Origin: an uncultured Candidatus Binatia bacterium
Lineage (GTDB): Bacteria; Desulfobacterota; Binatia; Bin18; CBDCRK01
Reading direction: 5' to 3'
Length of the DNA stretch: 64,000 bases
Assembly: GCA_965220955.1 (NCBI GenBank)
Contig: CBDCRK010000037.1
Coordinates: forward strand, 58,928-122,927
Shown here: in pieces, positions 3,083 through 55,838 of the stretch
Position numbering within the stretch: the stretch's first letter is position 1
How the letters are laid out: every line of letters begins with the position of its first letter
Made by a program: the position numbers and the translations under genes
The notes under the pieces: generated by a model
The model's input: only the letters and a program-made list of their open reading frames with translations
The model's database searches: none
What the model was told of the DNA's origin: nothing

Positions 3083-3675
3083 GTGACATGCCAAGTGGAG
3101 GTATAAAACAGATGCCCTTGGGTGACATTTTCTATAAAGCCGGCTGCCTGCAACTCACGCCGCAGGGCACGGCGTGTTACAAAGTCAGGATCAGGAAACT
3201 GCTCAGAAACGGATAGACGGCCCCCAGGACAAAGTACCCGGCGGATCTCAGCCAGCGCTTGTGGACGATCTGGTATCTCGCCCAGTACGGCGATGAGAAA
3301 GACATGATCGACTGAGTCAGACCGTAGTGGGAGCATAATCGCGCTGGCCTGGACGAAGCCGGCGTTGTCTTGACCGGCCACAAGGATCCGGCGTCGGACC
3401 TCAAGCAGCATGTCCCGCTGGATGTCAAGGCAGGTCAGGCGTCCTCTCTCTCCAACACGACGTGTCGCCTCAAGGGAGTAATAGCCGATCCCCGGCCCAA
3501 TCTCGAGCACGCGCTCGCCCTCCGCCAGCCCGAAGGCGCCAAGAATCTGCTTGGGGCCCGCAACGAGCACCCGCAGCGGTGACTCCAGGACAGCCGCATG
3601 CGAGAATGGACAGGGCATGGGCTCCAGCCTCCTCCAAAGGCGGTCCCACCAAGCACGAATAAGAGACTTAGCCAT
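3079..3675 (-). CDS. Class I SAM-dependent methyltransferase
   Basis: Methyltransf_11-like motif (VLEIGPGIGYY...LDI) in a 198-aa ORF; start could be the internal Met (MPCPFSH). Confidence 0.6.
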   Translation of the reverse strand: MAKSLIRAWWDRLWRRLEPMPCPFSHAAVLESPLRVLVAGPKQILGAFGLAEGERVLEIGPGIGYYSLEATRRVGERGRLTCLDIQRDMLLEVRRRILVAGQDNAGFVQASAIMLPLRSDSVDHVFLIAVLGEIPDRPQALAEIRRVLCPGGRLSVSEQFPDPDFVTRRALRRELQAAGFIENVTQGHLFYTSTWHVT

Positions 3676-3941: not shown

Positions 3942-5048
3942 ATGGCTTATCGTATTATTTCAGGGGACTCCCACTTTGTTGAACCCCCTGGCATGTGGGC
4001 CGAGCGCATGGACAAGAAATTCCGCGACAGGGCTCCGCACACCATAAAGGGGTATCAGGGAAAAGAGGGAGAATTTTTTGTCTGTGAGAATATTACCCCC
4101 ATTGCCGTGGCCGGGTTTTTTGGCTCGGGCAAAAGCTCTGAAGAGCTGCCCGAACACAACCGACACGGATTTGATGTGGCCCCAGCTAGCGTCTGGGACC
4201 CGGCTGCACGGCTGAAAGAGCAAGAGAGGGATGGGGTAAGCGCGGAGGCACTCTATACTTCTATGGGCATGATGCTCTTTGGTCTGGAGGATGCTGAACT
4301 ACGGACGGCCGCTTTTCGAGCGTTTAACGACTATGCAGCAGAGTACTGCAGCTATGACCCCAAGCGTCTGGCAGGGCTGGGCGTGATTACCTTAGAGAGC
4401 ATCCCGGCTGGGGTGGAAGAGTTAAAACGGTGTGCCCAAAAGGGACTAAAGGGTGTGCTTATCTGGGGAGCCCCGCCTGAGGATAAACCCTACAGCCATA
4501 GGGACTACGACCCCTTCTGGGCGGCAGCCCAGGACCTGAATATGCCCCTTTCCCTCCATATTCTCACCGGTCGGCGGGGAACAGGAGTCAGCTTTGACCT
4601 ATCAAACATCCTCCACGCCTACATGGCTCTGCCCCAGGAAATCCAGCTCACCCTGGCAAACATGGTCTTTGGCGGCGTGTTCGAGCGGTTTCCCAGGCTA
4701 AAAATTGTCTCCGCTGAAAACGATGTTTCCTGGATTCCCCACTTCATGTACCGTATTGACCATGCTTATGACCGCTTGCGCCATTTTGAGGGAGTCACCC
4801 TCCAGATGATGCCCAGCGAGTATGTCAAACGGCAGGTCTGGGCGACTTTCCAGTTTGAGGATGTATGGATTGATCTGCGCAAGCGCTATGCGCTAGACAA
4901 ACTGATGTGGTCCTCGGACTACCCACACACCGATTCCCCCTGGCCTCGCTCCAAGCAGTGGATCGAAGAACATTTCACAGGGGTACCTGAGAACGAGTTG
5001 GCCGAGGTAGTTGGCGGCAACGTTGCTAATCTCTACGGGATTGCTTAA
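3942..5048 (+). CDS. Amidohydrolase-2 family metal-dependent hydrolase (ACMSD-like)
   Basis: 368-aa ORF with strong RBS; N-terminal ISGDSHF..EP and C-terminal WSSDYPH motifs typical of Amidohydro_2. Confidence 0.7.
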   Translation: MAYRIISGDSHFVEPPGMWAERMDKKFRDRAPHTIKGYQGKEGEFFVCENITPIAVAGFFGSGKSSEELPEHNRHGFDVAPASVWDPAARLKEQERDGVSAEALYTSMGMMLFGLEDAELRTAAFRAFNDYAAEYCSYDPKRLAGLGVITLESIPAGVEELKRCAQKGLKGVLIWGAPPEDKPYSHRDYDPFWAAAQDLNMPLSLHILTGRRGTGVSFDLSNILHAYMALPQEIQLTLANMVFGGVFERFPRLKIVSAENDVSWIPHFMYRIDHAYDRLRHFEGVTLQMMPSEYVKRQVWATFQFEDVWIDLRKRYALDKLMWSSDYPHTDSPWPRSKQWIEEHFTGVPENELAEVVGGNVANLYGIA

Positions 5049-5071
5049 ACGGCGTTAACGACTCTCTGTCA

Positions 5072-5106
5072 AGGGAGAGGGTAGAGACCCTCTCCCTTTC
5101 TAGTTT
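5072..5106. terminator. Rho-independent-type hairpin between convergent genes (amidohydrolase + / cytochrome c' -)
   Basis: Perfect 10-bp stem (agggagaggg / ccctctccct) with a 6-nt loop, followed by a T-rich run (ttctagttt). Confidence 0.5.
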
Positions 5107-5132
5107 GGTGAACACATCCCTATGACTATAGC

Positions 5133-5621
5133 TTATGCCTTCTTCTCCGGCTTGCGGAACTGGTCATGACAGCTCTTGCACGCGCCAAAGACCTTCCTTA
5201 GCTGAGCACCAGCGGTCTCAGCTTCACCGTTGACCGCCGTTTGGGCTAGCTGATCAGCCTCAGTGCTTAGCATTGTGGCCGATTTGACAAAGTCTTCCCA
5301 CTGCTGCCAGATTTCTGCCTTGGCCCGGGAACTATCCGAAGTGCTCCCCTGGGGAAAAAGCTCAGCAATACGGGTAGAGTGGAGCGCAATAGCCTGGGCG
5401 TTGACCGCCATCTCCGCTACCCGGCCACCGTCAAGCTTGGCCTTCATGGCCTTGGCATTCTCGCCAATGTTCTCCATTAAGTAATGACGAAAGTTAATGG
5501 AGTCTTTAGCCTTAGGAAGGCCCTTGGGGTGGTCGTGATCTCCATGCGCAATAGAGCCTGTGCTATAAAGCAGCCCAGCAGCACCAAGAGCAAGAACTAA
5601 ATAAGAAAGAGATAGCTTCAT
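5133..5621 (-). CDS. Cytochrome c' (class II c-type cytochrome)
   Basis: Signal peptide, four-helix-type sequence with a single C-terminal CKSCH heme-binding site; RBS GGAGGAGGA precedes the internal ATG (MKLSLSYLV), so the start is set at 5621. Confidence 0.65.
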   Translation of the reverse strand: MKLSLSYLVLALGAAGLLYSTGSIAHGDHDHPKGLPKAKDSINFRHYLMENIGENAKAMKAKLDGGRVAEMAVNAQAIALHSTRIAELFPQGSTSDSSRAKAEIWQQWEDFVKSATMLSTEADQLAQTAVNGEAETAGAQLRKVFGACKSCHDQFRKPEKKA

Positions 5622-5649: not shown

Positions 5650-6552
5650 TTATTTGCCTTCAACCACATAATGAATCGGCGGGACACTTTTGAGATAGGC
5701 CGCCACTGCCCTGGCATCTTCACGTGTCATATCCTTGTACCCTACAGGTAACCCATCGACAAGCAGGGCCATTAATCCCTGCACATTGTCCGCATTGGGC
5801 TTAAATCCCGTACGCAAGAGGTCGGCAATATCGCGCTCGCTCCAGTCTCCAATTCCGGTCTTTTCATCAGGAGTAATATTGGGAACAATCTCGCCATCTA
5901 CCCCTTCAGCATTGCCCGCAAGGTAAAGAGAATCTTCCAGAGTGCCTGTGACTTTACGTGGGGTATGACACTCGCCACAGTGAGCCACATGCTCGGCAAT
6001 GTATTTCCCTCGTTCCACTCCGGATTCCGGCGCTTGTCGAGAAGCAGAAGCCGGAGAGAAGAAGAGCCAGCGCCATATCCGCATCAGGGTTCCAGAAAGC
6101 GGGAGTTTCATCTCATGGGGTTTGTTTTCTTGGGCAATTGGGGGAAGACTGAGCATATAGACAACCAGAGCCTTCACATCCTCGTCTGCCATGCCACTAA
6201 AAGCGGGGTATGGCATCACCGGACTGAGACGCTCTCCGTTTGGTCGTACACCCAGGCGAATAGAATCGATAATCTCCTGGTTGGTCCATTGGCCAATACC
6301 GTAGGTTGGATCTGACGTGACATTAGTGCCATAATAGGTACCCAAAGGCGTTTTTGTTGGCCGACCTCCGGCGTTTAGCGGTCCTCCCTCTGCCGTGTGA
6401 CATCCACACCCTCCGGCAAGCGCAAAAACATATTTTCCCTTTTCCACCAAGCTCTGGCTGGCTTCTTGGGCAAGGGTACAAGGAGGGAGAGCCCCCCCCA
6501 GCAACAAGATCAGAATAAGAACCCACTTTTTTTTATGCCTTAGACACCGCAT
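5650..6552 (-). CDS. Diheme c-type cytochrome
   Basis: Signal peptide plus two CxxCH motifs (CGCH, CGECH) in a 300-aa ORF. Confidence 0.7.
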   Translation of the reverse strand: MRCLRHKKKWVLILILLLGGALPPCTLAQEASQSLVEKGKYVFALAGGCGCHTAEGGPLNAGGRPTKTPLGTYYGTNVTSDPTYGIGQWTNQEIIDSIRLGVRPNGERLSPVMPYPAFSGMADEDVKALVVYMLSLPPIAQENKPHEMKLPLSGTLMRIWRWLFFSPASASRQAPESGVERGKYIAEHVAHCGECHTPRKVTGTLEDSLYLAGNAEGVDGEIVPNITPDEKTGIGDWSERDIADLLRTGFKPNADNVQGLMALLVDGLPVGYKDMTREDARAVAAYLKSVPPIHYVVEGK

Positions 6553-6696
6553 TGTGCCGCTCTTTGGTCCCCAGTTGTTTATCTAGTTATTTATGAGGAA
6601 GGTTGAGGTTTTGCAAGCAGGTCTTGAGGGAAGAGAAGTGGCGAATCTAAGCAACACAATCTTTGAGATAACTCGGGCACTTCTGCATAAGAAAAC

Positions 6697-35464: not shown

Positions 35465-36013
35465 GATGAGGCTCACAAGATGAGGAGGACTTTTTCTCTA
35501 TTCGGCTTTTTTCAAGCTGGGAGACCAAAGGAGGGAGAAGGGGGCGAGCGACGAAAGAACGGCCTTCCACAGTGGGGGGAGGAAGGGCTGAATAATCGGG
35601 CGGGGTGTCTACGGGCGCCCCGCGGGGTGGAGTAATTAGTTGCTTAATGTGATGGGCATACGAATCGGGTGTGTATGCGAGATGCCATAGATAACATGAG
35701 GCGCCGCAGATTTGGCCACCTTCACTTCCTTGGGTTTCACCTGAGGAGTAATGTGCAGGACAAAGCCATTGCGAGCTGTGAGAAAACGCTGGGGTTTCTG
35801 CGAAGATTGTTGCTGATCCATAGACTATGTTTCTGCCTCATAAAAAATTAGCGTCCGAGGCTGGTAGTCAAGCGCTTACCTCGTCTGGCTGACAGCTGGC
35901 TTCCGACCGCTGAGTCTTTACATAGCATAGTCTTCACTCACCTCCAACTGCTTGCAAGCTACACTACTCCAGTTTATGCTAGGGACAGCAAACAGAGCCG
36001 AAGGAGATTGACA

Positions 36014-36667
36014 ATGGGATTGTCAGATGAGCTGCGCCAGAAGCACGAGACACTGTGGGAAAAAATGGTCATGCATTCGTTTGTCCGAGAGCTGGGTGAG
36101 GGTACGCTGCCGGCAGAGAAATTTATCACCTACTTTGTTCAGGACTATACTTTCCTGGTTGACGCAACCAAGATGATGGCCCTGGCTATTTCCAAGGCGC
36201 CCGATGTAGAGGCCGCACAAAAAATTTCTGCTTTTCTCAATGCAGCGATTACCGGGGAGGAGAGTCTTTTTCGCCGGGGCTTTGAGGAGCTGGGCGTACC
36301 TCCTGGAAGATACACTGGAGCAGAGCTACTTCCTACGGCTCTGTCCTATGCCAATTTCCTTCTGCGCACTGGTCATGAGGGAAGCTTTAACCAGATCCTG
36401 ACAATTCTTATGGTTGTCGAATGGACCTATCTCGATTGGGCAAAGAGGCTGGTAGCACAGGGGAAAAAACCGGTAAGAAAAGTGTATCAGGAGTGGATTG
36501 ACATCCACGTTGCACCAGCCCTGGAAGAGTTTGTTGGCTGGGCAAAGGAGCGAATTGACAACAGTCCAGTGGGCGAGCGAGCGTCTATCGAACAGACATT
36601 TTTAGTTACGCTCCGCTACGAATACCTCTTTTGGGATATGGCGTACCAAGGAGAAAGCTGGCCCTGA
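36014..36667 (+). CDS. TenA/Thi-4 (thiaminase II / heme-oxygenase-like) family protein
   Basis: TenA-like helices (FVQDYTFLVDA, WTYLDWAKR); RBS AAGGAG 7 nt before the ATG at 36014. Confidence 0.7.
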   Translation: MGLSDELRQKHETLWEKMVMHSFVRELGEGTLPAEKFITYFVQDYTFLVDATKMMALAISKAPDVEAAQKISAFLNAAITGEESLFRRGFEELGVPPGRYTGAELLPTALSYANFLLRTGHEGSFNQILTILMVVEWTYLDWAKRLVAQGKKPVRKVYQEWIDIHVAPALEEFVGWAKERIDNSPVGERASIEQTFLVTLRYEYLFWDMAYQGESWP

Positions 36668-36767: not shown

Positions 36768-37064
36768 TCAATGTCCGATTTCTTCCTCAGAGTTTTCCTC
36801 AATTGCTCCTTCAGCCTGATCGAGGAGGAAGCTCAGCTCACGTAGAGCCTCGTTCATGTGATAGGCTACAGCCAGCAGGGAGCCATAGGCAATCTCTTCC
36901 GTGTCGTGTAGCTTTAGGTGGTCATTGACCATAGAGAGAAGGCTACGCATTTGTTCTTCAGCGTCATAGAGGTGCTCACAAAGACCCATGGTTCCCTCCC
37001 GACCCTGACCTATAAGGCCAAGAAGCATTGATTTCACCATAAGGGAAAAGACTAACAAGGGCAA
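36768..37064 (-). CDS. Small hypothetical acidic protein
   Basis: 98-aa ORF (likely start at the internal ATG giving ~90 aa); no RBS or recognisable domain. Confidence 0.3.
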   Translation of the reverse strand: MPLLVFSLMVKSMLLGLIGQGREGTMGLCEHLYDAEEQMRSLLSMVNDHLKLHDTEEIAYGSLLAVAYHMNEALRELSFLLDQAEGAIEENSEEEIGH

Positions 37065-37154
37065 GGGTAGATCCCTATCCCTCTACTTTTACATAGCCAA
37101 TCGGTGCTTTAGAAAAATCCCACATTGGTACCTTTTGGCAAACGATCTTGCTGA

Positions 37155-37292
37155 GCACCCGGCCTGCCCGTCCCGGCCATTGGGGCGGTGCTCTGGCATG
37201 CCTCGATGGAGACGACGGCTGGCTATGCCAAAGTCGATTTGCCCTTGCTCCAGCAAGTGGCCCAACCCTGGCCGGAGGTGGCGCCATGTTGA
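37155..37292 (+). pseudogene. C-terminal tail fragment of a tyrosine recombinase
   Basis: Short frame ending ...LWHASMETTAGYAKVDLPLLQQ..., matching the extreme C-terminus (LGHAS..TT..Y..V) of phage-integrase-family proteins; nothing upstream. Confidence 0.45.
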
Positions 37293-38030
37293 TGACCGCA
37301 GTCGATACCTACTTAGCCGTACGGCGGGCGGCAGGCTTTCAACTCAACCATCTTGAGGCCTATTTGCGCAGCTTCGCCCGCTTTATGCACGCGGAGAACC
37401 CGCGGCATGAGATCCCCCCCGCAAACCCTCTTCTGTGGGCGGCGCCAGCAACCGACCCCCTATATCTTTAGCGAGGCGGAAATCCAGCGCATTGTGGCTC
37501 ACGCGCGGCAACTCAGTCCCTTGGATTCGCTGCGGCCCTCTACCTACAGCACCCTGTTTGGTCTGCTCGCTGCCACGGGGATGAGTTGCGCGGAAGCTCG
37601 GGCGCTCCAGCTCAGCAATATCACTCCGGCTAGAATCCTCATCCGGGAAAGCAAGTTCAAGAAAAGCCGACTGCTCCCGCTGCACGACACAACCTGGGTG
37701 GCCCTGGAGGGCTACCTCGACCGGCGGCGGCGAGTCGCCGGCCACGATCCGCACCTGTTTGTCTCCCGCCGCGGCGGCAAGCTCTCTCACACCATCGTGG
37801 CCGAAACCTTCCATGCGGTAGTGCAAGCAGCTGGCGTTCCGAGTGAGCCAGGCAAACCCTGCCCCCGGCTCATGGACCTCCGGCATATCCTCGCCGTCCG
37901 CGGGCTCGAGACGTGTCTCGATGGCCGCGATCAAGTCCTTCATGCACTTTCCGGAGTACCGCGTCCCGGCCCACCTGGAGCAGATTCGCTAGGCCCTGGC
38001 CATCCCCGCAAAAAAACCAGCAGCCCCTGA
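37286..38030 (+). pseudogene. Tyrosine recombinase / phage-integrase family gene disrupted by at least two frameshifts
   Basis: N-terminal SAM-like domain (MLMTAVDTYLAVRRAAGF..LEAYLRSFARF) in one frame and the catalytic domain (IRESKFKKSRLLPLHD..HLFVSRRGGKL..LRHILAV) in another; the C-terminal HxxR..Y region shifts again. Confidence 0.6.
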
Positions 38031-38090
38031 TCCCGCATCTCTCCCTCACAGAATGTTAAGCTTGGCATCAACGAGGAGGAATTTTATCGC

Positions 38091-38633
38091 TTGGCGGATG
38101 AAAACAGCGATGGAGAGTACCTTGACGGAAGGATTGTCATGCATTCGCCTGCCTCAAATCGGCACGAGGATACTTCCCGTTTTCTCCTCACCCTCCTGAG
38201 CGCCTACCTGGATGAAAAAAGAGCAGCGGTGGGGCGCGGCTCCCGTTATCCGAGGCGTCTCGATGCCAGCTGGTCCCCGGAGCCTGATATCCTGGTAGTC
38301 CGCAAGAGTCGCCGGCAGCTTATGACGTCCCGCCGTTTGGAAGGGCCCGCCGATATGGTCATCGAGATCGCTTTGGAGAGCGACCCCAGGCTGGACTACC
38401 GTGAAAAGCTCCCACGCTATCGCCAGGCAGAGATCGAGGAGATCTGGATCATCAATCCCTTCGAGAACGATATCCTGGCGGAGGTAAAAACAACGGCCGG
38501 CTACACCACGCAGGTCCTGTCCTCGGGACAGCTAAGGTCCAAGGTACTGCCCGGTTTCTGGATCGAGGTCTCCTGGTTCTGGCAGGAGGAGTTGCCGCCA
38601 ACGCTCAGGTGCCTACGAGAAATCATGCAATAA
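38091..38633 (+). CDS. Uma2 family (DUF820) putative endonuclease
   Basis: EYLDGRIVMHSPA...PDILVV...EIALESD...Y..A.IEEIWIINP pattern of Uma2/PD-(D/E)xK; the frame stays open ~20 codons upstream without an ATG, so the start is uncertain (TTG at 38091). Confidence 0.6.
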   Translation: MADENSDGEYLDGRIVMHSPASNRHEDTSRFLLTLLSAYLDEKRAAVGRGSRYPRRLDASWSPEPDILVVRKSRRQLMTSRRLEGPADMVIEIALESDPRLDYREKLPRYRQAEIEEIWIINPFENDILAEVKTTAGYTTQVLSSGQLRSKVLPGFWIEVSWFWQEELPPTLRCLREIMQ

Positions 38634-39514
38634 TTCCTTAGTAGAGAGGAATAATCCCTTTTGCCCATTCTCATCCCTGTCCATCTCTTTCTTATAGGGG
38701 TGCCTATAGTCTCGGAAAGATAGCAATTCGCTAAGCGCCTGGTGGCTGTATTCGGACTCTGAAATCACCAGCCCGGCCAGAAACGCACCCAAGGCCAAAG
38801 AGAGTCCAGCTTGCGCTGTTACCCAGGCAGTACCCAACCCCAGAAGCAAGATACTAACTAAGAAGAGCTCACGGCTGCGCGTACGTACGACCTGATACAA
38901 TACCGTGGGGACAAGGTAACGGGTGGCAACAAGCACCAGAACCAGGACCCCCCCGCTTTCCCTACGACTACAAGCACAGGTTCTGATCCTTGAGCTCCAG
39001 CACCGGCTAAAAACGGAACCAGCAACATCATCAGCACAACGCTAAGATCCTGAAGAATTAGGATGCCTAGTGCAGTACGCCCCTGGGGACTATCGAGAGT
39101 AGCTTGCGCTGCCAGGAGCCTTACCACAATGGCAGTGCTGCTCAGAGAGATAAGGAAACCAAGGAACACAGAGGGGCCCATCGGCTGGCCCAACACTTGG
39201 GCGAGCACAAATACCACTCCTACCGTACCCAACACCTGCAGCGTCCCGCCCAGAAGCACAGCTCGCCGGATGAGCATAAGCTCCCGGAGGGAGAATTCGA
39301 TGCCAATGGTAAACAGCAGCATAACAACGCCAATTTCGGCCAGGACTTCAACTTCCTGCACCGCGGCGATCAGCTGCAACCCATGCGGACCAACTAGAAC
39401 TCCGATAAAGAGAAACCCCACAATGGTCGGTAACCGCAGGTAATGGAAAACAAAGAGGACCCCTAGGGACAAGCCAAAGATAATAATCAAGTCTGTTAGA
39501 ATATGCACTTCCAC
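38613..39514 (-). pseudogene. CPA2 (KefB/KefC-type) cation:proton antiporter membrane domain, frameshifted and truncated
   Basis: ORFs 38858..39514 and 38613..38936 together cover the Na_H_Exchanger TM domain with a frame change near 38900-38940; no C-terminal KTN/RCK domain. Confidence 0.55.
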
Positions 39515-39925
39515 ATTGGGCTCCTATCAACAGAGGAAGGGAGACCGGTATACCCCGAGCAAAGTCATTTGGCAAATGTCAGGGGTCGAGCAGCCCCGCG
39601 GCCGGAGCTAGCAGGAAATTGGATCTCTCGTCAATAGCCTCACTGGACGCTCTTGCTATCGAGTGCGGTCGCGGGCCGAGAGAGTTCTGAGTAGCAACTA
39701 TAGGCCAAAAGAGAGGCCAGTAGAACTCTACAGGTTCACTGATGGTAAGTAGGGGAAAGGGCTATTGTAAGCCAACCAAAGAAGAAAGACCGACAAGAAG
39801 GACCGCTGGACAAGCAAAAAAATTAGAGTTCTTCTGACTTGAACTCATAAGCCACCTCACTTTCTGTTCTTAGTATTGTATTTTCATCAAGAAGAGAAGG
39901 GGGTTGTGTAAGTTCGTATATAATT

Positions 39926-39960
39926 CCCAAAAAAATAGGGGCGCAAAACCTTGCACCCCT
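39926..39960 (-). terminator. Rho-independent terminator of the hsp20 gene
   Basis: On the minus strand, a 10-bp GC-rich stem (AGGGGUGCAA/UUGCGCCCCU) with a GGUU loop followed by a U7 run. Confidence 0.65.
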
Positions 39961-48469: not shown

Positions 48470-49345
48470 ATGTCATATGCTGACTCAGATGGCGTAAAGC
48501 TCTATGTCGAAGAAACAGGGAACGGTTATCCGATTGTATTTGTTCACGAGTTCGCCGCGGACCATCGTGAGTGGGAAACCCAGGTACGCTATTTCTCGCG
48601 CAATTATCGCTGCGTCACCTATGCCGCCCGTGGCTATACGCCCTCGGATGTCCCTGAGGATGAGGCCGCATACAACTACATCCACTTTGCCGATGACATA
48701 GCCGCAGTCATGCGACACGTTGGAGTGCCCAAAGCCCATATCGTAGGGCTTAGTCAGGGGGCGTATGCAACTCTGATGTTTGGGCTCCGGCATCCCCAGT
48801 TGGCAAGTGCGCTTGTCGCCGCGGGCTGTGGAAGCGGCTCGGCCAGGGAGCAGCGAGAGGATTTTTTGAAGCAATGCGAGATCAATGCGCACCGGTTTGT
48901 GCAGGAAGGGGCAACAGCCCTGGCCCAAGAAATGAGCCTCAGCGCCAGCCGGGTGCAGCTGCTGAACAAGGATCCGCGCGGGTGGCAGGAATTCGTTGAC
49001 CACCTGAGCCACCATTCCGCCAGAGGCTCGGCGCTGACGATGAGAAACTACCAAGGCAAGCGGCCGTCTCTGTACGAGTTTGCCGAGCAGTTTTCCGCAC
49101 TGACAATCCCCACCCTGATTATTGTCGGCGATGAGGACGATGCCTGCATTGAGCCCAGCGTCTTCTTGAAACGTACCATTCCGACTGCCGGGTTGTTTGT
49201 ACAGCCACGGACCGGCCATGCCATCAACCTCGAAGATCCGGCCGTATTTAATCGCGAGGTCCAGGAATTTTTTAGTACCGTAGAGCGAGGACGCTGGGGC
49301 AGACGCGATCCGAGGGCCACGGTTAGCGTACAAATCCCGCGCTGA
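48470..49345 (+). CDS. Alpha/beta-fold hydrolase
   Basis: GLSQG nucleophile elbow, HG oxyanion, C-terminal His; RBS AGGAGG before the ATG at 48470. Confidence 0.75.
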   Translation: MSYADSDGVKLYVEETGNGYPIVFVHEFAADHREWETQVRYFSRNYRCVTYAARGYTPSDVPEDEAAYNYIHFADDIAAVMRHVGVPKAHIVGLSQGAYATLMFGLRHPQLASALVAAGCGSGSAREQREDFLKQCEINAHRFVQEGATALAQEMSLSASRVQLLNKDPRGWQEFVDHLSHHSARGSALTMRNYQGKRPSLYEFAEQFSALTIPTLIIVGDEDDACIEPSVFLKRTIPTAGLFVQPRTGHAINLEDPAVFNREVQEFFSTVERGRWGRRDPRATVSVQIPR

Positions 49346-49524
49346 GGCGATGGAAACCCAAAAGCCGCTGGCGCGGAGGTAGCCTGTCCTGAGCTTAGCG
49401 AAGGGTTCAGAGCGAACGCCGAGGAGGAAGTGTTTAGATGTGTCTAGAGGGAAGACAGTAATAAAAAAAGGGAGTTATATACGATTTTACACAAGTCCAC
49501 CCAATTTAGTGAGGCTGAATGCTA

Positions 49525-49592
49525 AACCATGCCCTGCCCTACCTTGCCTTGACAGGCCATGCCTTAACGGGCCAAGCCCTGCCTTGATGAGA
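49525..49592. repeat. Three imperfect direct repeats (~15-17 bp, core gcc(a/c)tgcctt(g/a)a) at the left edge of the AT-rich island
   Basis: ccttgccttgaca / ggccatgccttaacg / ggccaagccctgccttgatg, read directly from the sequence. Confidence 0.4.
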
Positions 49593-49690
49593 GTTGGGCA
49601 AATCTGGGGAGAACCGAGACTCAGCCATGTCCTCCGGAACAAATTGTTTCGGATAATCGCCGAAGCAATTGAAATAGAAAGGAGAAGAGA

Positions 49691-49966
49691 ATGGCGCACA
49701 ATTTCATGTTAGTCTTTAAGGAAAACCCAATATTTAAGGAAGACCCACAACCAACTGAACCTCTTGCCCGCATCGCTCTCAGAAGCTGGACGAAGGACAA
49801 GGATGGATTAATTTTCATCGCTTCCCTTTGTAAGGGAGAATATGAACTTGAGTATGAAGTGAACCAACTCAAGGCAGAACTCGACGAGATACTCCGCCTT
49901 GGGCGTGAGAAATTTAAGAATCACAACGCCAAAAAATCAAAAAGGTCCGGCAAAGCAACCCCGTAG
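49691..49966 (+). CDS. Hypothetical small basic protein (91 aa)
   Basis: Strong RBS GAAAGGAG; low-GC context; no recognised domain. Confidence 0.45.
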   Translation: MAHNFMLVFKENPIFKEDPQPTEPLARIALRSWTKDKDGLIFIASLCKGEYELEYEVNQLKAELDEILRLGREKFKNHNAKKSKRSGKATP

Positions 49967-50019
49967 GAAGTGGAGGTATTTGGAGAAAAAGAAAACGGCT
50001 CTGGGGTTGGGGTACAGAG

Positions 50020-50238
50020 ATGAGCAAGGGGATGAGCAAGGGTAAGTATTGCCCCCTGTGTCAACGGTTCGTCGAGCCTGAAACACGGGGAAATGACAGT
50101 GCCGGCTGCATTCTTTTTTTGCTCTGCTTCTTTCTTGCTATCCCCACTCTCGGATTGAGCCTACTCGGTTTCCTGCTATGGGCGTTGTCTGCTAAAGGAC
50201 GGTGCCCCATATGCCATAACGCTCAGCTAGAAAATTAG
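50020..50238 (+). CDS. Hypothetical small membrane protein with split zinc-ribbon (CPLC...CPIC) flanking a TM helix
   Basis: 72-aa ORF; CxxC ... TM ... CxxC arrangement. Confidence 0.4.
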   Translation: MSKGMSKGKYCPLCQRFVEPETRGNDSAGCILFLLCFFLAIPTLGLSLLGFLLWALSAKGRCPICHNAQLEN

Positions 50239-50269
50239 GAAAACCAGCAACTTCAAAGGAGAAGAGAGC

Positions 50270-50458
50270 ATGAGCTTATCCGAGTGGCTGTCTATCATTG
50301 CTTACTATGCCCAGTTGATGGCTATCTTCTACGGCATCCGTCAGATGGGGAAAGCAAGCATTCAGAGAGATAAGGCTTTGGAGCAACAGGGCAAGGCTTT
50401 GGAAGATATGGGAGCTGGGATACGGGAACTGCTACAGAGAACGCCCAGGGCTGCTTAG
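50270..50458 (+). CDS. Hypothetical small membrane protein (62 aa)
   Basis: RBS AAGGAG; N-terminal TM helix. Confidence 0.4.
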   Translation: MSLSEWLSIIAYYAQLMAIFYGIRQMGKASIQRDKALEQQGKALEDMGAGIRELLQRTPRAA

Positions 50459-50493
50459 GAGAAACGGTGGTCAAGAAGGGAAGGGAAGAGAAT

Positions 50494-50925
50494 ATGCCAG
50501 AAGATTCAGGACAAAATTGGGTAGTGAGACGTTATGAATGTAGGGTCGAGAAGCAGTTAGAGAAGCTTAGAAATGTTCTTGAACAGGATGTTAATCAAAT
50601 GAACATCCTGCTTGGCGAGAAAAGTGAGTGGTGGTTCGATGTTTCTGATCCAGGTTTGCTTGAATCTGAATCTGGATGTGAGGTCAGAAAAGTTGATAAG
50701 TATACTCGATCTCTCGTTTCCGTTGGGTCAGAGAACACAGTTTCCTTTATCTTGGAAAAGCAAGCAATTCATGTAAAGCACGATGGTAAAGAACTATTCA
50801 AGGTTCAGCTTGAGTGGAATGGGCGGCAGAGCCATTGTGACCTCAAGATTGATGGGGAGACCTATGAACTTTGGGAAATATCCCATATAGCCCTGGGTCC
50901 TTTCTTCTTTGAGGGCAAGTTTTAG
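50494..50925 (+). CDS. Hypothetical protein (paralog A of a duplicated gene)
   Basis: ORF 50467..50925; start set at MPEDSGQNWVV by analogy with paralog B (MPEEDLGPDWVV) and the GGGAAGGGAAG RBS. Confidence 0.5.
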   Translation: MPEDSGQNWVVRRYECRVEKQLEKLRNVLEQDVNQMNILLGEKSEWWFDVSDPGLLESESGCEVRKVDKYTRSLVSVGSENTVSFILEKQAIHVKHDGKELFKVQLEWNGRQSHCDLKIDGETYELWEISHIALGPFFFEGKF

Positions 50926-51870
50926 AAAGTCAGGAGGTCAGGCAGGAGTAGCTGAGCTGTTTTCCATCCATAAGTCTGACCATTGCGGTCATGCGATCCA
51001 AGATAGAGAGTGGCCGCAGGTTATGGCGGCCCACAAACTCGTTCACGTACCTGCCCAAGTGCTTCACGCTCATTTTATGGTAGACGCCATAGTGCCCACG
51101 TTTAAGGAGTGCCCAGAAGCTTTCTATGCCGTTAGTGTGAACCATGCCCGAAACGTACTGGCCGGCACTATGTCTGACAGAGTGGTGGTTTTTCAGGTCA
51201 ATATAGCCGCCATGGTCGTCCGTAAAGACAAGGGCGTCCTCTGGCTATTCGTTCTTCAACAAACTTCTGTAGAGTGGCTTTATCGGTGCCGAGAGACACC
51301 ATGGCTTTTAGCTGGTTAGTCCCACGGTCCAAGATCCCTAACACGGGAGTCTTACCGGCTGTCCCTCTACCCGAGCGTAGTTTCTTGTCTCCGTGCTTAT
51401 TCTTCTCTCTTCCGCCCACATAGGTTTCATCTACTTCTACCGGGCCCACACAAACCGAGAGTCATTATCATTCCATATTTCCCTTATGCGGTGCGCCAGA
51501 TGCCAGGCTGTTTTCTGGGTAATACCAAGGTCACGGGCAAGCCGAACGCTCGACACACCTTAACACTGGTGCTTATCATGTAGAACGCCAGAGCCCAGCC
51601 CTGAAATCCAAGCTTGGAGCTCTGCATTGGGGTTCCCGTCTTTACTGAGAAGTCTCTCCTGCAATGCCGGCAATGGTAAGGCTGGGGCTTGCGGTGGGGC
51701 GAAGGTATAGGTCTCGTGATTCACACTTCGGACACCGTATACCGCCCGGCCAGCGAGCCTCTATAAACCATTTCTCAGCCGTAGCATCGTCAGGGAATTT
51801 ATGAAGTAACTGGGCCAGCGAGAGTTGTTTCTCCATACACCCTAATGATAGCAAAGGCGTATAACATCTT
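50926..51870 (-). mobile_element. IS1595-family insertion sequence remnant; transposase split into three frames
   Basis: Minus-strand pieces: N-terminal zinc-ribbon (51642..51854, ...RWPGGIRCPKCES...), central DDE region (51198..51449, ...DETYVGG...) and C-terminus (50930..51145, ...NGIESFWALLKRGHYGVYHKMSVKHLGRYVNEF...). Confidence 0.7.
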
Positions 51871-51882
51871 AAAGGAGGATCT

Positions 51883-52290
51883 ATGCCAGAAGAAGATCTA
51901 GGACCAGATTGGGTAGTGAGACGTTATGAATGTGGGGTCGAGAAGCAGTTCCTTAAGCTTAGGAATGTTCTTAAAGGTGATGTTAGTAAAATGAACGTCC
52001 TGCTTGGCAAGAAAAGTGAGTGGGAGTTCAGTGTTCCTAAGCTAGCTGCTTTTGAAACATATAAAATTGATGTCGTAAAAGAGCACAAGTCTATGTCTCT
52101 CCTTCGGTCAGAAAGCACAGTTTCCTTTACCTTGGAAAACCAGACAATTCATGTAGCGCAGGGTGATAAAGAACTATTTAAGTAGAGCTTGCCTGGAATG
52201 AAAGGCAAAGCCATTGTGACCTGAAGATCGACGGTGAACCTTATGAGCTTTGGGAAATCTCTCAGAGAGCATTAGGACCTTTGAGGATTA
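51883..52290 (+). pseudogene. Paralog B of the 50494..50925 gene, carrying a frameshift/premature TAG
   Basis: First 100 aa collinear with paralog A, then TAG at 52183-52185; the remaining homologous C-terminus (...CDLKIDGEPYELWEIS...) continues in another frame (apparent 1-nt deletion) and runs into the convergent peptidase gene. Confidence 0.5.
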
Positions 52291-53697
52291 TTTCCCCAAC
52301 TCCTCTAAGACCTCTATCAAGGTTTGCGTGCCTGAGATCAGGCTTTCTAAAGAGATTCGCTCATTGAGTCCATGCACGCGCCGAGACTCCCCCTGAGCAA
52401 GTGTGATAGCGGTAAAACCGTAGCTAACAATGTCCTTTCTGCGAAAGTAGTGAGAGTCAGTGAATCCCACTAAAATGCCCGGTACTACAGGGGCCTCGGG
52501 GTGATGGCGAGAAGCCACGGTTTGGATCGTACGGAAAAGCTCAGTGTCCGTCTTAGAAGCAAGGGACGGAAAGTTAAGCAAAATGGAAAAGCGCACCTGG
52601 GGGTCATCTGCCACTTGTTCCAACTCGGCAATAAACTTCTGCGGGTCTTCTCCGGGGAGTAGACGACAGTCAAGCTGAGCCGTGGCCTGGGCAGGAATCA
52701 CATTCGTTTTATTGCTTCCTGAAATAACGGTGGGCACAATGGTATTGCGTACCAGCGCATTGTAAAGGGGGTTAGCCATAAACTCCTGACGAAAGGTAGG
52801 GTCTTTAAGTGCCTGGGTCAGGTCGCGATAGTGCTCTCGTTTGGCTGGCTCTTCCTGCTCCGCCAGGGCCGTGAAAAACTCCTGCACTGCTGGCACAACC
52901 TTGACCTCGGTCTCATGGAGGCGAATCTTTTCCAGAGCACGGATCAGGCGTGTCACCGCAGTCTCGGGCAACGGAACCGAACCATGTCCGGCCTGGCCGC
53001 TAGCTGCCAACTGGACCCAGCAGGGGGCTTTCTCTGCCACGGCCACGGAGTAAGACCTCTTGCCGTCTTTCATCCTGATTCCTCCACCCTCGTTGAGCAG
53101 AAACTCGGCATCGGCAATAAGATCAAAATGGTTATCCACAAACCACCCGGCCCCTAGCTTCCCCCCTGTCTCTTCATCCGCTGTCCCTAGGAATATGATA
53201 TCACGCTTAAGTAGCGTGCCCATCCGCTTAAGCAGAGCCATGGCAAGAAACTCAACCGTTCCCACCCCTTTGCAATCCATTGCTCCCCGGCCGTACACAT
53301 ACCCATCTTTGATCACACCAGCGAAGGGATCAACTTCCCAGCCCACTTTTGTGGCTGGTACTACATCAAGGTGATTGAGTAGTATCACTGCCTTTTTTTC
53401 CCCTGTGCCCTTGAGTCGAGCGTATACTATTCCTCGCCCCGGCTGGGACTCAAATACCTGGGCAGGAATTCCCTCCTGAGCAAATCGCTCCTGGAAGAAC
53501 TTGGCTGCAGGAGTTTCGTTTCCTGGCGGGTTGGTGGTGTCGATTTGAATATAGTGGCTAAGCAGATCACCCGCTTCCTCCTGGACCACGCTCCAGTCTA
53601 CCTCAGTTGCCCAGGCAACCCGAAGGACAAAGCAAAAGGAGAAAAAACAGAGGGGAATCACAAATTTACGGAGAACCAGAGCCATCTTAACCCCCAC
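52288..53697 (-). CDS. M20 family metallopeptidase (ArgE/DapE/CPG2/PM20D1-like), secreted
   Basis: Signal peptide; M20 motifs (NHLDVVP, GRGAMDCKG, TADEETGG). Confidence 0.8.
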   Translation of the reverse strand: MGVKMALVLRKFVIPLCFFSFCFVLRVAWATEVDWSVVQEEAGDLLSHYIQIDTTNPPGNETPAAKFFQERFAQEGIPAQVFESQPGRGIVYARLKGTGEKKAVILLNHLDVVPATKVGWEVDPFAGVIKDGYVYGRGAMDCKGVGTVEFLAMALLKRMGTLLKRDIIFLGTADEETGGKLGAGWFVDNHFDLIADAEFLLNEGGGIRMKDGKRSYSVAVAEKAPCWVQLAASGQAGHGSVPLPETAVTRLIRALEKIRLHETEVKVVPAVQEFFTALAEQEEPAKREHYRDLTQALKDPTFRQEFMANPLYNALVRNTIVPTVISGSNKTNVIPAQATAQLDCRLLPGEDPQKFIAELEQVADDPQVRFSILLNFPSLASKTDTELFRTIQTVASRHHPEAPVVPGILVGFTDSHYFRRKDIVSYGFTAITLAQGESRRVHGLNERISLESLISGTQTLIEVLEELGK

Positions 53698-53868: not shown

Positions 53869-54570
53869 TTAGGAAGCAGCTATAGCCCGCTCGATGCCAT
53901 CAAAGAACTGCCACCACATATCAAGCGAGCAGTTGAGGGCCAAACGCACTCTTTCTTGCCACTCCTCCGTAGTGGCGTGACGCACAACAATGTGATCACC
54001 TACATCGCTGTGATCCTTATCTGCCTCTTCGTGTATATCCCAAAAAGCAACCTGAGCGCTGGTAAGTCCGTAGTGCTTTTCCAGGGAACGGGCAAAGGGA
54101 CTAAAGCTGCCTGGCACCTGTCCCTCAGCCGCAAGGTTGATGGCTGCTGCTCCTTCAATAAAAGAGCGCTGCTTGGTAGACAGCTCAAACCAATTGATGA
54201 GCGTAGCAGTAGCTGGTAAGGGCTCGCCATAGACTATCTGCTCACGGGACAGCCCCAGCCCCTGGCCAAAACGGACGAATAGCTCAGGGTGAGGGAGGTT
54301 GCAACCCGAGATCTTACCTGTCTCTTCTTCGAAGAGGCTCTCGGCCAGCTTGATCCGCTCTTCAGCAAACGGACAATTGGCATGCATAGCGCTCACTGCC
54401 CGAGGAAACTCACGCACCTGCAGGAAAAATTGTACGGCCCAGGTCTGCATCTGCAGGAGCGTAAGTTCTCCCTCCATAATCTTGAGCCAGAGCGGGTGGC
54501 GACCAAACGTTCGCTTGGCCTGGATTGTCTCCATCAAATCTTGCACAAATTCTCGGTTTGACACGGTCAT
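53869..54570 (-). CDS. PqqC-like / heme-oxygenase-like (TenA_C/CADD-like) family protein
   Basis: Strong similarity to the PqqC pattern (RHPLWLKIMEGELTLLQMQTWAVQFFLQVREFPRAVSAMHANCP...LFVRFGQGLGLSREQI); start at the internal ATG (54570), whose ATGA overlaps the ribBA stop. Confidence 0.6.
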   Translation of the reverse strand: MTVSNREFVQDLMETIQAKRTFGRHPLWLKIMEGELTLLQMQTWAVQFFLQVREFPRAVSAMHANCPFAEERIKLAESLFEEETGKISGCNLPHPELFVRFGQGLGLSREQIVYGEPLPATATLINWFELSTKQRSFIEGAAAINLAAEGQVPGSFSPFARSLEKHYGLTSAQVAFWDIHEEADKDHSDVGDHIVVRHATTEEWQERVRLALNCSLDMWWQFFDGIERAIAAS

Positions 54571-55838
54571 AGAGTTGCCCTCTTTAAAGATTCCTTCCCT
54601 CCTCGATTGTAAGCTGCAGGTTGTGGGTTTCGTTTTCTCGACGCAGAAGGAGTACGCCGCTGAGAGGGAACGCTCAACGGCACACACTCAACAATCTCCA
54701 AACCATATCCAGGTAAACTCACCAAACGGGGCGGATTATTAGTGAGGAGCCGCATTTTTCTCACCCCCATATCTCGTAGGATCTGGGCGCCAATGCCATA
54801 GTCACGAAAGTCGCGTAACCGGGAGGTTAGGCTTGTGCTTAGCTGGCGTGATTTCTTACTGCGACCTTTTCCATCCAAGCCATGGTCGCGAAAGAGGTCT
54901 GTTCCTCGTCCCTCCTGCCGCAGGTAGAGGATCACCCCTTTCCCCTCAGCAGCAATGATCTCCATTGCCTGGTGAAGAAGGGCTCCCGTATTGCGGCGGG
55001 CGTAACCAAACACATCCCCTGGCAGATACTCGGTATGGGCCCGCACCAGCACTGGCTCCTTGGGGTTAATCTTTCCCTTGACTAGGACTAGATGCTCCTC
55101 TTCATCCACGTCACTGATATAAACGCAGGCAGTAAAGTCGCCGCCATAGCGGCTTGGCACCTTTGCTTCCGCCACCCGGTGAACTAGGGAATCATGCCGC
55201 AGACGGTATTGGACAAGGTCAGTAATGGTAGCGATCTTAATCCCATGCCGGGCGGAGAACTTCTCGAGGTCTGGCAACCGCGCCATGGTACCATCATCCT
55301 TCATAATCTCGCAGATCACTCCAGCGGGTTTAAGCCCAGCGAGGCGTGCAAGATCCACGGATCCTTCGGTTTGCCCAGTACGCACAAGCACCCCGCCTCT
55401 GCGGGCACACAGGGGAAACATATGTCCCGGAGTCACTAGGTCCTCGGACCGTGTGTTGTCACGGATGGCAGTAAGAATGGTGGTGGCCCGGTCCTCCGCC
55501 GAAACTCCCTTACCTACTCCATAGCGGGCATCAATAGAGACGGTAAATGCAGTGCCTAAGGGCGCAGTGTTTTTGCTCACCATCATGGATAGGCCGAGCG
55601 CATCAACCTGCCCCGCAGTCAGGGGTAGACAGATGAGCCCTCTACCGTACTTAGCCATGAAATTGATCGCCGCCGGCGTTACTTTCTCCGCTGCTAGGCA
55701 AAGGTCTCCCTCATTCTCTCGATCTTCATCGTCCATAAGGATGATCATCTGGCCAGCACGGGTTTCCTCGATTGCCTCTTCAATCGAGACCACATAGGAA
55801 CTCTTGTACACTGGAGTAGGTAGTGGTGTCGAAAACAT
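54567..55838 (-). CDS. ribBA: RibBA-like: 3,4-dihydroxy-2-butanone-4-phosphate synthase fused to a degenerate GTP cyclohydrolase II-like domain
   Basis: N-terminal RibB motifs intact (DDEDRENEGDL...); in the RibA-like domain the zinc-ligand region reads HTEYLPGDVFGYARRNTG instead of HSECLTGDxFGSxRCDCG, so all three Cys are absent, and the following catalytic stretch is also divergent. Confidence 0.7.
   Translation of the reverse strand: MFSTPLPTPVYKSSYVVSIEEAIEETRAGQMIILMDDEDRENEGDLCLAAEKVTPAAINFMAKYGRGLICLPLTAGQVDALGLSMMVSKNTAPLGTAFTVSIDARYGVGKGVSAEDRATTILTAIRDNTRSEDLVTPGHMFPLCARRGGVLVRTGQTEGSVDLARLAGLKPAGVICEIMKDDGTMARLPDLEKFSARHGIKIATITDLVQYRLRHDSLVHRVAEAKVPSRYGGDFTACVYISDVDEEEHLVLVKGKINPKEPVLVRAHTEYLPGDVFGYARRNTGALLHQAMEIIAAEGKGVILYLRQEGRGTDLFRDHGLDGKGRSKKSRQLSTSLTSRLRDFRDYGIGAQILRDMGVRKMRLLTNNPPRLVSLPGYGLEIVECVPLSVPSQRRTPSASRKRNPQPAAYNRGGKESLKRATL

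Follow-up and report, generated by a model that had tools for sequence, protein, structure and literature searches.

Identity of the AT-Rich Island

What is the AT-rich block of small genes at 49470–52287 in this stretch of DNA from an uncultured Candidatus Binatia bacterium (64 kb, hereafter the window)? The initial annotation described an island of small open reading frames (ORFs) in which an IS1595-family insertion sequence (IS) had inserted between two diverged paralogs of a 143-aa gene, here p143A and p143B. Our results indicate that the whole island, from 49470 to ~52287, is probably the immobilised remnant of a cargo-carrying IS1595 element, a transporter IS, perhaps of two abutting copies that have collapsed. 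The island is 2.8 kb long and lies between two convergent genes, an alpha/beta hydrolase gene that ends at 49345 and an M20 peptidase gene that ends at 52288. Four tightly packed plus-strand ORFs (p91, p72, p62, and p143A) are present as described, followed by a minus-strand transposase pseudogene and by p143B.

The compositional dip was borne out by the GC profile. GC content was 0.44–0.48 over 49.4–50.9 kb and 0.42–0.45 over 51.8–52.3 kb, compared with 0.55–0.60 in the flanks. The fall in GC coincided exactly with an IS1595-family terminal inverted repeat (IR) at 49470–49494 on the plus strand (GGGAGTTATATACGATTTTACACAA), whose exact core GGGARTTATATAC starts at 49470. This IR is the end distal to the transposase; its interior points rightward, and it forms the left edge of the island. 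A 25-nt version of the repeat, GGGARTTATATACGANNTTACACAA, occurred twice in the window (49470–49494, plus strand; 39904–39928, minus strand) against 0 expected occurrences. Across the 2.27 Mb of comparison loci that were fetched, which carry L-numbers, the core GG[GA]A[AG]TTATATA[AC] was confined to loci with an IS1595 transposase. It was later found in L214 as well, where the IS1595-type repeat follows the end of a p143-family gene by 36 nt, and in L216, 75 nt ahead of the transposase. The window IRs resembled those of L206 and L209, which also hold the closest transposases (63% identity).

All of p91, p72, p62, p143A, the transposase, and p143B lie on the interior side of the 49470 IR, the first four between this surviving IR and the transposase. 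A second IR was not found anywhere to the right of 49470 in the correct orientation with up to four mismatches. On the right side, the homology between the two p143 copies stops at 52282–52286, and the C-terminus of the M20 peptidase (...ELGK and stop) is unchanged in relatives without the island. Native sequence therefore restarts at 52288, which places the island/native junction at 52283–52287, directly before the M20 stop codon (52288–52290). The right IR and the target duplication are missing from this junction. The 8-bp flank of the left IR, TAAAAAAA (49462–49469), has no partner at 52283–52300 because the right end has been deleted.

Two other candidates for element ends were rejected. 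Of a 13-nt inverted repeat (49591/52290), the right arm belongs to the native coding sequence of M20; the same applies to an IR-like string at 52283, which has four mismatches and is on the wrong strand.

Transposase Pseudogene and the Two p143 Copies

The IS1595-family transposase pseudogene was recognised by Pfam and tblastn at 50930–51836 on the minus strand. Its N-terminal zinc ribbon (Zn_ribbon_IS1595, PF12760) matched at 51642–51854 and its ISXO2-like DDE domain (DDE_Tnp_IS1595, PF12762) at 51198–51449 and 50930–51145, with E-values over the three ORF pieces of 1e-7 and 4e-12 to 7e-14. The gene had been described as an IS1595-type transposase, inactivated and broken into three pieces; type and inactivation hold, but tblastn with intact relatives resolved five segments with four frame changes. 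The pseudogene thus has at least four frame changes, and its N-terminal ~12 codons are gone. The reconstructed protein (302 aa) shares no more than 63% identity with intact IS1595 transposases of 310–313 aa. Homology to these relatives begins only at residue ~14 (window position 51830), with the conserved N-terminal APGKxHRKG missing, which places a rearrangement junction within 51830–51882. The probable junction is the 46-nt spacer at 51837–51882, which separates p143B from the truncated transposase 5' end and holds the ribosome-binding site of p143B and no IR. A promoter-like TTAAGA-16-TATCAT was seen on the minus strand at 51872–51845, in the direction of the transposase.

p143A (50494–50925, plus strand) is apparently intact and belongs to an unnamed family of ~140-aa proteins. 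Its ATG lies within a 152-aa GTG ORF, and it has a usable ribosome-binding site. p143B (51883–52286, plus strand) is a pseudogene with a 1-nt deletion at ~52182 and with the last ~7 codons lost. The initial annotation had the 143-aa gene duplicated, with a diverged second copy running out of frame (TAG and a 1-nt deletion) into the peptidase gene, and alignments confirmed this account. p143B shares 76–84% DNA identity with p143A over 51883–52282. A single missing G at ~52182 yields the TAG, the frame beyond it still matches p143A to 52282, and the shifted frame reads into the convergent M20 gene (stop at 52288). After frame repair, 87 of 131 aa were identical between the copies, with dS 0.60, dN 0.23, and dN/dS 0.38. 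Judged by these substitution rates, the split of the copies would be old and their divergence shaped by purifying selection, with a late frameshift in p143B. The Logan assembly of run ERR13605531 supplied an independent copy of identical sequence, the p143B frameshift included.

The transposase gene lies exactly between the two p143 copies, which is what a plain IS1595 element (transposase and its own ends) would leave after inserting between tandem chromosomal paralogs in an unrelated, horizontally acquired island. The age of the copies (dS 0.6) and the purifying selection on them are also as expected for long-standing paralogs. However, neither IRs nor a target duplication were found directly around the transposase, near 50926 and 51870, by a generic inverted-repeat search and an IR-core scan. 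The p143A stop and the p143B start are 957 nt apart, and the transposase ORF alone takes 906–942 nt; the p143A and transposase stops are separated by 4 nt, and the transposase and p143B ATG codons by 46 nt. This gap therefore leaves no room for two element ends, since two IRs of at least 25 nt and a leader of 60–110 nt cannot fit into 957 nt with 4 nt on one side. The true, family-typical end is the IR at 49470, 1.46 kb to the left at the island edge, and p143 relatives elsewhere are cargo within delimited IS1595 elements, as described below. We consider an insertion between host paralogs very improbable.

Delimited IS1595 Elements with Cargo

Six relatives were found to be IR-bounded elements of 2.4–3.6 kb with perfect 8-bp target duplications and variable passenger genes. 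The element in L147 (2405–5982, duplication TATACTAG) carries the transposase, a 520-aa methyltransferase-like gene, a p143 relative (5000–5413), and a 105-aa ORF. That in L177 (1082–3438, duplication AATACGAA) carries the transposase, a p143 relative (2172–2552), and ORFs of 127 aa and 61 aa. The element in L090 (98–3710, duplication CTTACAAA) has an HNH-like ORF, the transposase, and a convergent, frameshifted p143 relative (1902–2277) only 27 nt from the transposase, which is the same layout as p143A and the transposase in the window. Also IR-bounded are L206 (2052–5583, duplication TCCCCGGA), L209 (2380–5639, duplication TCCGAGGA, with a third IR copy at 6545), and L210 (2314–5052, duplication TCCCAAGA). 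Their IRs begin GGGAATTATATAC and are spaced 2.8–3.6 kb apart, and the elements measure 2.7–3.5 kb. L206/L207, L209, and L210, where the three proteins closest to the window transposase are encoded, have in common a core of the transposase and a CsgG-like gene; a 54–55-aa ORF is carried as well.

Since IR-bounded IS1595 elements with 8-bp duplications contain p143 relatives, the simplest view is that the window's small ORFs and its two p143 copies are element cargo and not host genes. By analogy with these relatives, the zinc-ribbon DDE transposase would have recognised IRs beginning GGGAATTATATAC and moved everything between them, duplicating 8 bp of target. Decay has left the transposase with at least four frameshifts and without its first ~12 codons, and p143B with a frameshift and a 3' truncation. 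The right IR has been removed by a deletion that ends exactly at the M20 stop codon. With a dead transposase and one end missing, mobility is lost. What may be left as potentially functional is the plus-strand cargo operon p91–p72–p62–p143A, which may still be expressed.

Transporter IS with passenger genes are an established category of the IS1595 family (Siguier, Gagnevin and Chandler 2009, as cited in PMC11891212). The passengers cited for known members are regulators, methylases, and resistance genes. The window and its relatives share with this category a transposase of zinc ribbon and DDE_Tnp_IS1595 domains, and the delimited relatives also share the pair of short terminal IRs, the 8-bp duplications, the length of 2.4–3.6 kb, and unrelated passengers on either side of the transposase. 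In the window, the transposase domains and one family-typical end speak for membership. The window copy differs from the category as a fossil that retains a single IR, whose transposase is dead and which lacks a target duplication. The recurrent cargo is also different, being an unnamed 140-aa family instead of regulators, methylases, or resistance genes. Among the IS1595 subgroups of ISfinder, passenger genes occur, for example, in ISNha5, ISNwi1+, and ISPna2+. The category itself is thus known, and what is modestly new is the end signature of this clade, i.e., ends beginning GGGAATTATATAC together with an 8-bp duplication, and the unnamed cargo family. For annotation, a block of hypothetical small proteins with an IS insertion would become one fossil cargo-carrying IS1595 element with a mapped end.

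Some candidates in these loci did not hold up. ORFs of 152/153 aa in L206 and L209 were compared with p143 and rejected as relatives. A generic inverted-repeat search around the transposases of L083–L085 gave no credible IRs, and the GGGAATTATATAC core was likewise absent there. In L147, the 520-aa gene, which lies between the transposase and the p143 relative, shows by eye a DPPF-type motif and a C-terminal part that resembles restriction endonucleases.

The p143 Protein Family

An exact-word homology search with p143 returned only itself, and the profile version returned 6 proteins. A profile built from p143A and the two halves of p143B was then searched exhaustively with HMMER against 1.84 billion cluster representatives; 380 proteins matched at E ≤ 1e-3, 21 of them at E ≤ 1e-10, and almost all were 120–175 aa long and aligned end to end. 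In an alignment of 61 members, W9, V10, C16, D32, N37, I92, W108, C115, W127, S130, L134, and F139 were near-invariant, and p143A carries all near-invariant residues (W9, V10, C16, D32, N37, W108, C115, W127, S130, L134, and F139). Family-wide scans against Pfam, NCBIfam, PHROGs, and PADLOC gave no consistent match; in PADLOC, the 61 members produced only three isolated matches at chance level. The p143 profile had no match among PDB sequences, and tblastn with p143 found nothing in plasmids and phages. p143 therefore represents a real, unnamed, cytoplasmic family of ~140 aa, with ~380 clusters at 50% identity, that has no entry in Pfam, NCBIfam, PHROGs, PADLOC, or PDB.

The AlphaFold2 model of p143A built with the alignment reached a pLDDT of 88.9 and a pTM of 0.82; the single-sequence model (pLDDT 34) was unusable. 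The model has one short and one long helix, seven strands, and a helix at the C-terminus, arranged as a sandwich of helix, seven-strand sheet, and helix. This predicted fold is frataxin-like, a resemblance that is no evidence of function. Compared with the frataxin, CyaY, and complex I Nqo15 folds, the sequence identity of p143 is 6–13%, and Foldseek gave no significant match against PDB or BFVD. The Pfam profile Frataxin_Cyay did not match p143 either. Judged by sequence, p143 conserves two Cys, three Trp, D32, and N37 and not the acidic ridge of frataxin.

Six family members were located by exact sequence. Four of them lie beside an IS1595 transposase (L083, L084, L085, and L216), one near an IR, and one in a phage. 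In L085 and L216, the stop and start codons of the p143-family gene and the transposase overlap by 4 nt. The convergent arrangement of p143-family gene and transposase recurs in L090, L084, L163, and L128. A hand-made degenerate DNA pattern of the p143 N-terminal motif was then used to scan metagenome loci. The scan retrieved 120 loci, 119 of which encode a p143-family member. An IS1595 transposase was present in 7 of these loci, an IS1-family transposase (DDE_Tnp_IS1, 29.2 bits) in 14, and both in 1; among the 80 loci of the control set (1.38 Mb), only 2 had a transposase of either kind. Sixty-eight of the retrieved loci form one large chromosomal cluster, 11 members of which lie upstream of infC-rpmI-rplT-pheS; outside it, 16 of the 30 clusters (50% identity) have a transposase neighbour.

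In the IS1-type loci, the transposase usually lies immediately upstream of the p143-family gene on the same strand, and a conserved 103-aa ORF follows. This three-gene unit of ~1.8 kb consists of a 283-aa IS1-family transposase, the abutting p143-family gene, and the domain-less 103-aa ORF, e.g., at 6680–8508 of L098. It was found in L092, L098, L104, L132, L160, L168, L172, L182, L184, and L190, with 65–76% DNA identity between loci whose flanks are unrelated (L098 and L160 share 1.83 kb at 76%). The p143-family gene thus follows a single-ORF IS1-family transposase here as it forms cargo of IS1595 elements. The IS1 elements differ in the conserved third gene, of which neither the window nor the IS1595 loci contain a relative, and the window transposase is of IS1595 type. 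These p143-carrying IS1 elements presumably resemble ISMhu11. IS1 and IS1595 are treated as related families in the title of the 2009 paper by Siguier et al. (cited in PMC11891212).

The nearest homolog of p143, P0003 (42% identity), lies at 3322–3729 of L213, a Mu-like phage contig, between the Mu F gene and tail genes in a moron-like position, with no transposase or IS end nearby. The copy in L083 lies among phage head genes, and weak homologs of p91 occur on Microvirga plasmids, one near an Abi-family gene. These contexts would suit a phage, plasmid, or defence-island remnant in which the IS1595 parts are incidental and the small proteins form a toxin/immunity or abortive-infection module. 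The initial annotation had listed toxin/immunity, abortive-infection, and phage-remnant functions as candidates, and the PADLOC scans gave this idea no direct support. PADLOC had no matches in the island. PHROGs gave nothing significant for p143 or its family and only sub-threshold matches to families without known function for p91, p72, and p62. Moreover, no phage or plasmid backbone genes lie in or beside the island, and the IR sits exactly at the composition break. A phage or defence origin of the island is thus improbable, though slightly less so than an IS insertion between host paralogs.

One side observation concerns the chromosomal members. In 11 loci of one lineage from peat and soil metagenomes (L108, L111, L119, L142, L146, L149, L152, L153, L165, L170, and L176), the p143-family gene lies just upstream of infC-rpmI-rplT-pheS. 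This fixed position suggests a domesticated or housekeeping-linked copy, and in some lineages the family appears to have been domesticated upstream of infC.

One Element or Two

The reading of the island as a fossil transporter IS has several points against it. As only one IR survives, the rightward extent and the target duplication cannot be demonstrated in the window, and none of the available Binatia relatives is close enough to display an empty site. The closest transposase relatives (L206–L210) lack a p143 gene, and in no other element examined is the transposase flanked by two p143 genes. At least one internal rearrangement must have happened, given that the transposase has lost its 5' end. 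About 100 of the 120 motif-scan loci have no transposase nearby, many of them with the fixed context upstream of infC. Finally, the cargo status of p91, p72, and p62 is drawn from position and composition only.

Within the same reading, one element with two paralogs and two related elements fused by deletions both fit the island. In the second case, two head-to-tail elements (each with IR...p143 and convergent transposase...IR) would have been joined by two deletions. The first would have taken the 5' end of transposase 1, two IRs, and the cargo up to p143B, and the second the segment after p143B up to the peptidase stop. The late start of transposase homology at residue ~14 fits such a junction, the upstream 46 nt are unrelated to the leaders of the relatives, and dS 0.6 is far above that of a recent in-situ duplication. 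The convergent p143/transposase pair recurs elsewhere, as in the four loci given above. More than one element end exists in the region, given the solitary IR at 39904–39928, and the Logan contigs of run ERR13605531 are broken within the IS on both sides; therefore related copies are present in that sample. This scenario, however, requires two precise deletions, and no trace of a second transposase or of internal IRs was seen. We regard the fusion of two elements as a serious possibility that nevertheless falls short of even chances.

Small ORFs p91, p72, and p62

Upstream of p143A, p91 (49691–49966, plus strand) encodes a basic 91-aa protein and has a strong AGGAG ribosome-binding site. p72 (50020–50238, plus strand) encodes a membrane protein of CxxC-TM-CxxC layout (TM, transmembrane) that is LITAF-like at a sub-threshold level, and p62 (50270–50458, plus strand) has one hydrophobic N-terminal helix and a strong ribosome-binding site. 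The four small proteins had been described as without recognisable domains. Searches of the small proteins by hidden Markov models (HMMs) found no family above threshold. Pfam, PADLOC, and NCBIfam gave no match above their cutoffs (PADLOC none at E ≤ 1), and PHROGs gave only sub-threshold matches of p91, p72, and p62 to unknown-function families (best E 0.001). The description therefore stands apart from p72, which matched zf-LITAF-like (PF10601) with 21.4 bits, below the cutoff of 23.8, over profile positions 7–64 of 70. This match agrees with the CxxC-TM-CxxC layout of p72, whose sequence shows the two CxxC motifs as well as the hydrophobic core. Like the LITAF/SIMPLE-like zinc-ribbon membrane domain, p72 has two CxxC knuckles around a hydrophobic, membrane-inserted stretch. 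It differs in staying below the gathering threshold and in being a stand-alone 72-aa bacterial protein with no homologs detected.

Are these three ORFs genes at all? p91 and p62 are singletons at 90% identity among 15 billion proteins. p91 is called as a gene in the Logan assembly, and p72 was not called by the public gene caller. Homologs of p91, p72, and p62 were absent from every p143 locus and every other delimited IS1595 element examined, tblastn found no plasmid homologs of p72 and p62, and the bulk of the element is decayed. The singleton status of p91 and p62, the uncalled p72, the lack of homologs in these loci, and the decay would be expected if the region from the IR to p143A were mostly decayed non-coding or pseudogene sequence. 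Against this, the ORFs lie close together on one strand, AGGAG sites precede p91 and p62 in near-identical upstream context, and p72 has the complete LITAF-like layout. p91 also has weak tblastn matches (E 1e-3, ~35% identity) among the small hypothetical ORFs of Microvirga plasmids. On balance, it is unlikely that p91, p72, and p62 are mostly not genes.

The weak p91 homologs were seen at 3983–4207 of L211 (Microvirga terrae plasmid pR24_3) and on five other Microvirga plasmids. One of them lies ~700 nt downstream of the Abi-family gene.

Possible Role of p143

Members of the p143 family turn up repeatedly as passengers of IS1595 and IS1 elements and of a Mu-like phage. A role independent of the transposase is favoured because the family occurs in IS1595 and IS1 elements, in a Mu-like phage, and at fixed chromosomal sites, because the orientation of the p143 gene to the transposase varies, and because the gene is absent from the closest transposase relatives. 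From this distribution, we give an even chance to p143 being portable cargo that acts independently of the transposase, as a small module of protein-binding or inhibitor type that would benefit its carrier. A link to transposition is favoured because translational coupling to two related transposase families recurs, because the p143 gene is kept in minimal three-gene IS1 elements, and because it is the sole cargo common to the elements. That p143 is a transposase-coupled accessory or regulatory factor is possible but doubtful, and a role of some other kind is less likely still.

Tentatively, the family could then be an undescribed accessory or regulatory partner common to the sister DDE families IS1595 and IS1. 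If so, it would add a new type of transposition cofactor, one whose fold is frataxin-like, and p143A would be a surviving orphan. p143 is in any case a putative starting point for learning what small cargo does for simple transposons, as cofactor, anti-defence, or immunity.

Second Terminal Repeat and Surroundings of the Island

The second, solitary terminal repeat lies at 39904–39928 on the minus strand (GGGAATTATATACGAACTTACACAA), just after the hsp20 terminator, with its interior leftward. This remnant end belongs either to the element of the island or to a sister element, and tblastn found no transposase fragment near it. Both window IRs adjoin an A7 run (A7|IR at 49470 and IR|A7 at 39928; flanks 49460–49469 and 39929–39937). 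This pattern fits the halves of one target duplication, but the 'right' end would lie 9.5 kb to the left of the 'left' end, and the stretch between the two IRs is occupied by the genes from hsp20 to the alpha/beta hydrolase. The arrangement could reflect a cointegrate, a duplication or composite-like structure, or a target preference for A-runs. The reading of the two IRs as halves of one insertion was weakened by L216, which independently has an A-run flank (GAAAAAAAT|GGGAATT).

The debris at 36768–39903, beside the solitary IR, contains a truncated phage-integrase gene (37353–38030), a Uma2 endonuclease gene (38091–38633), and a frameshifted and truncated Na+/H+ exchanger gene on the minus strand (38613–39514).

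The flanking M20 peptidase assigns the window to Candidatus Binatia, and the best species-representative genomes share 62–73% aa identity with it at this protein. In a synteny comparison of 80 loci from Binatia relatives, the order ribBA-TenA-M20 was kept and nothing was retained on the island side; these relatives are too distant to judge presence or absence of the island. No tRNAs or Rfam families were found in the 64-kb window.

Three imperfect direct repeats had been noted at 49525–49592. A repeat does exist there, but only as a weak subterminal array of 15 nt × 2.3 at 49545–49578 (TRF score 47), between the IR and the first cargo gene. As a guess, it may serve in transposase binding or as a promoter. 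Just outside the terminal repeat of the island, at 49430–49448, lies a short tandem repeat, GTGTCTAGAT × 1.9. The window also holds two genes of the TenA/THI-4 family, one at 36008–36667 that adjoins the debris region and one at 53869–54687 that adjoins ribBA-M20.

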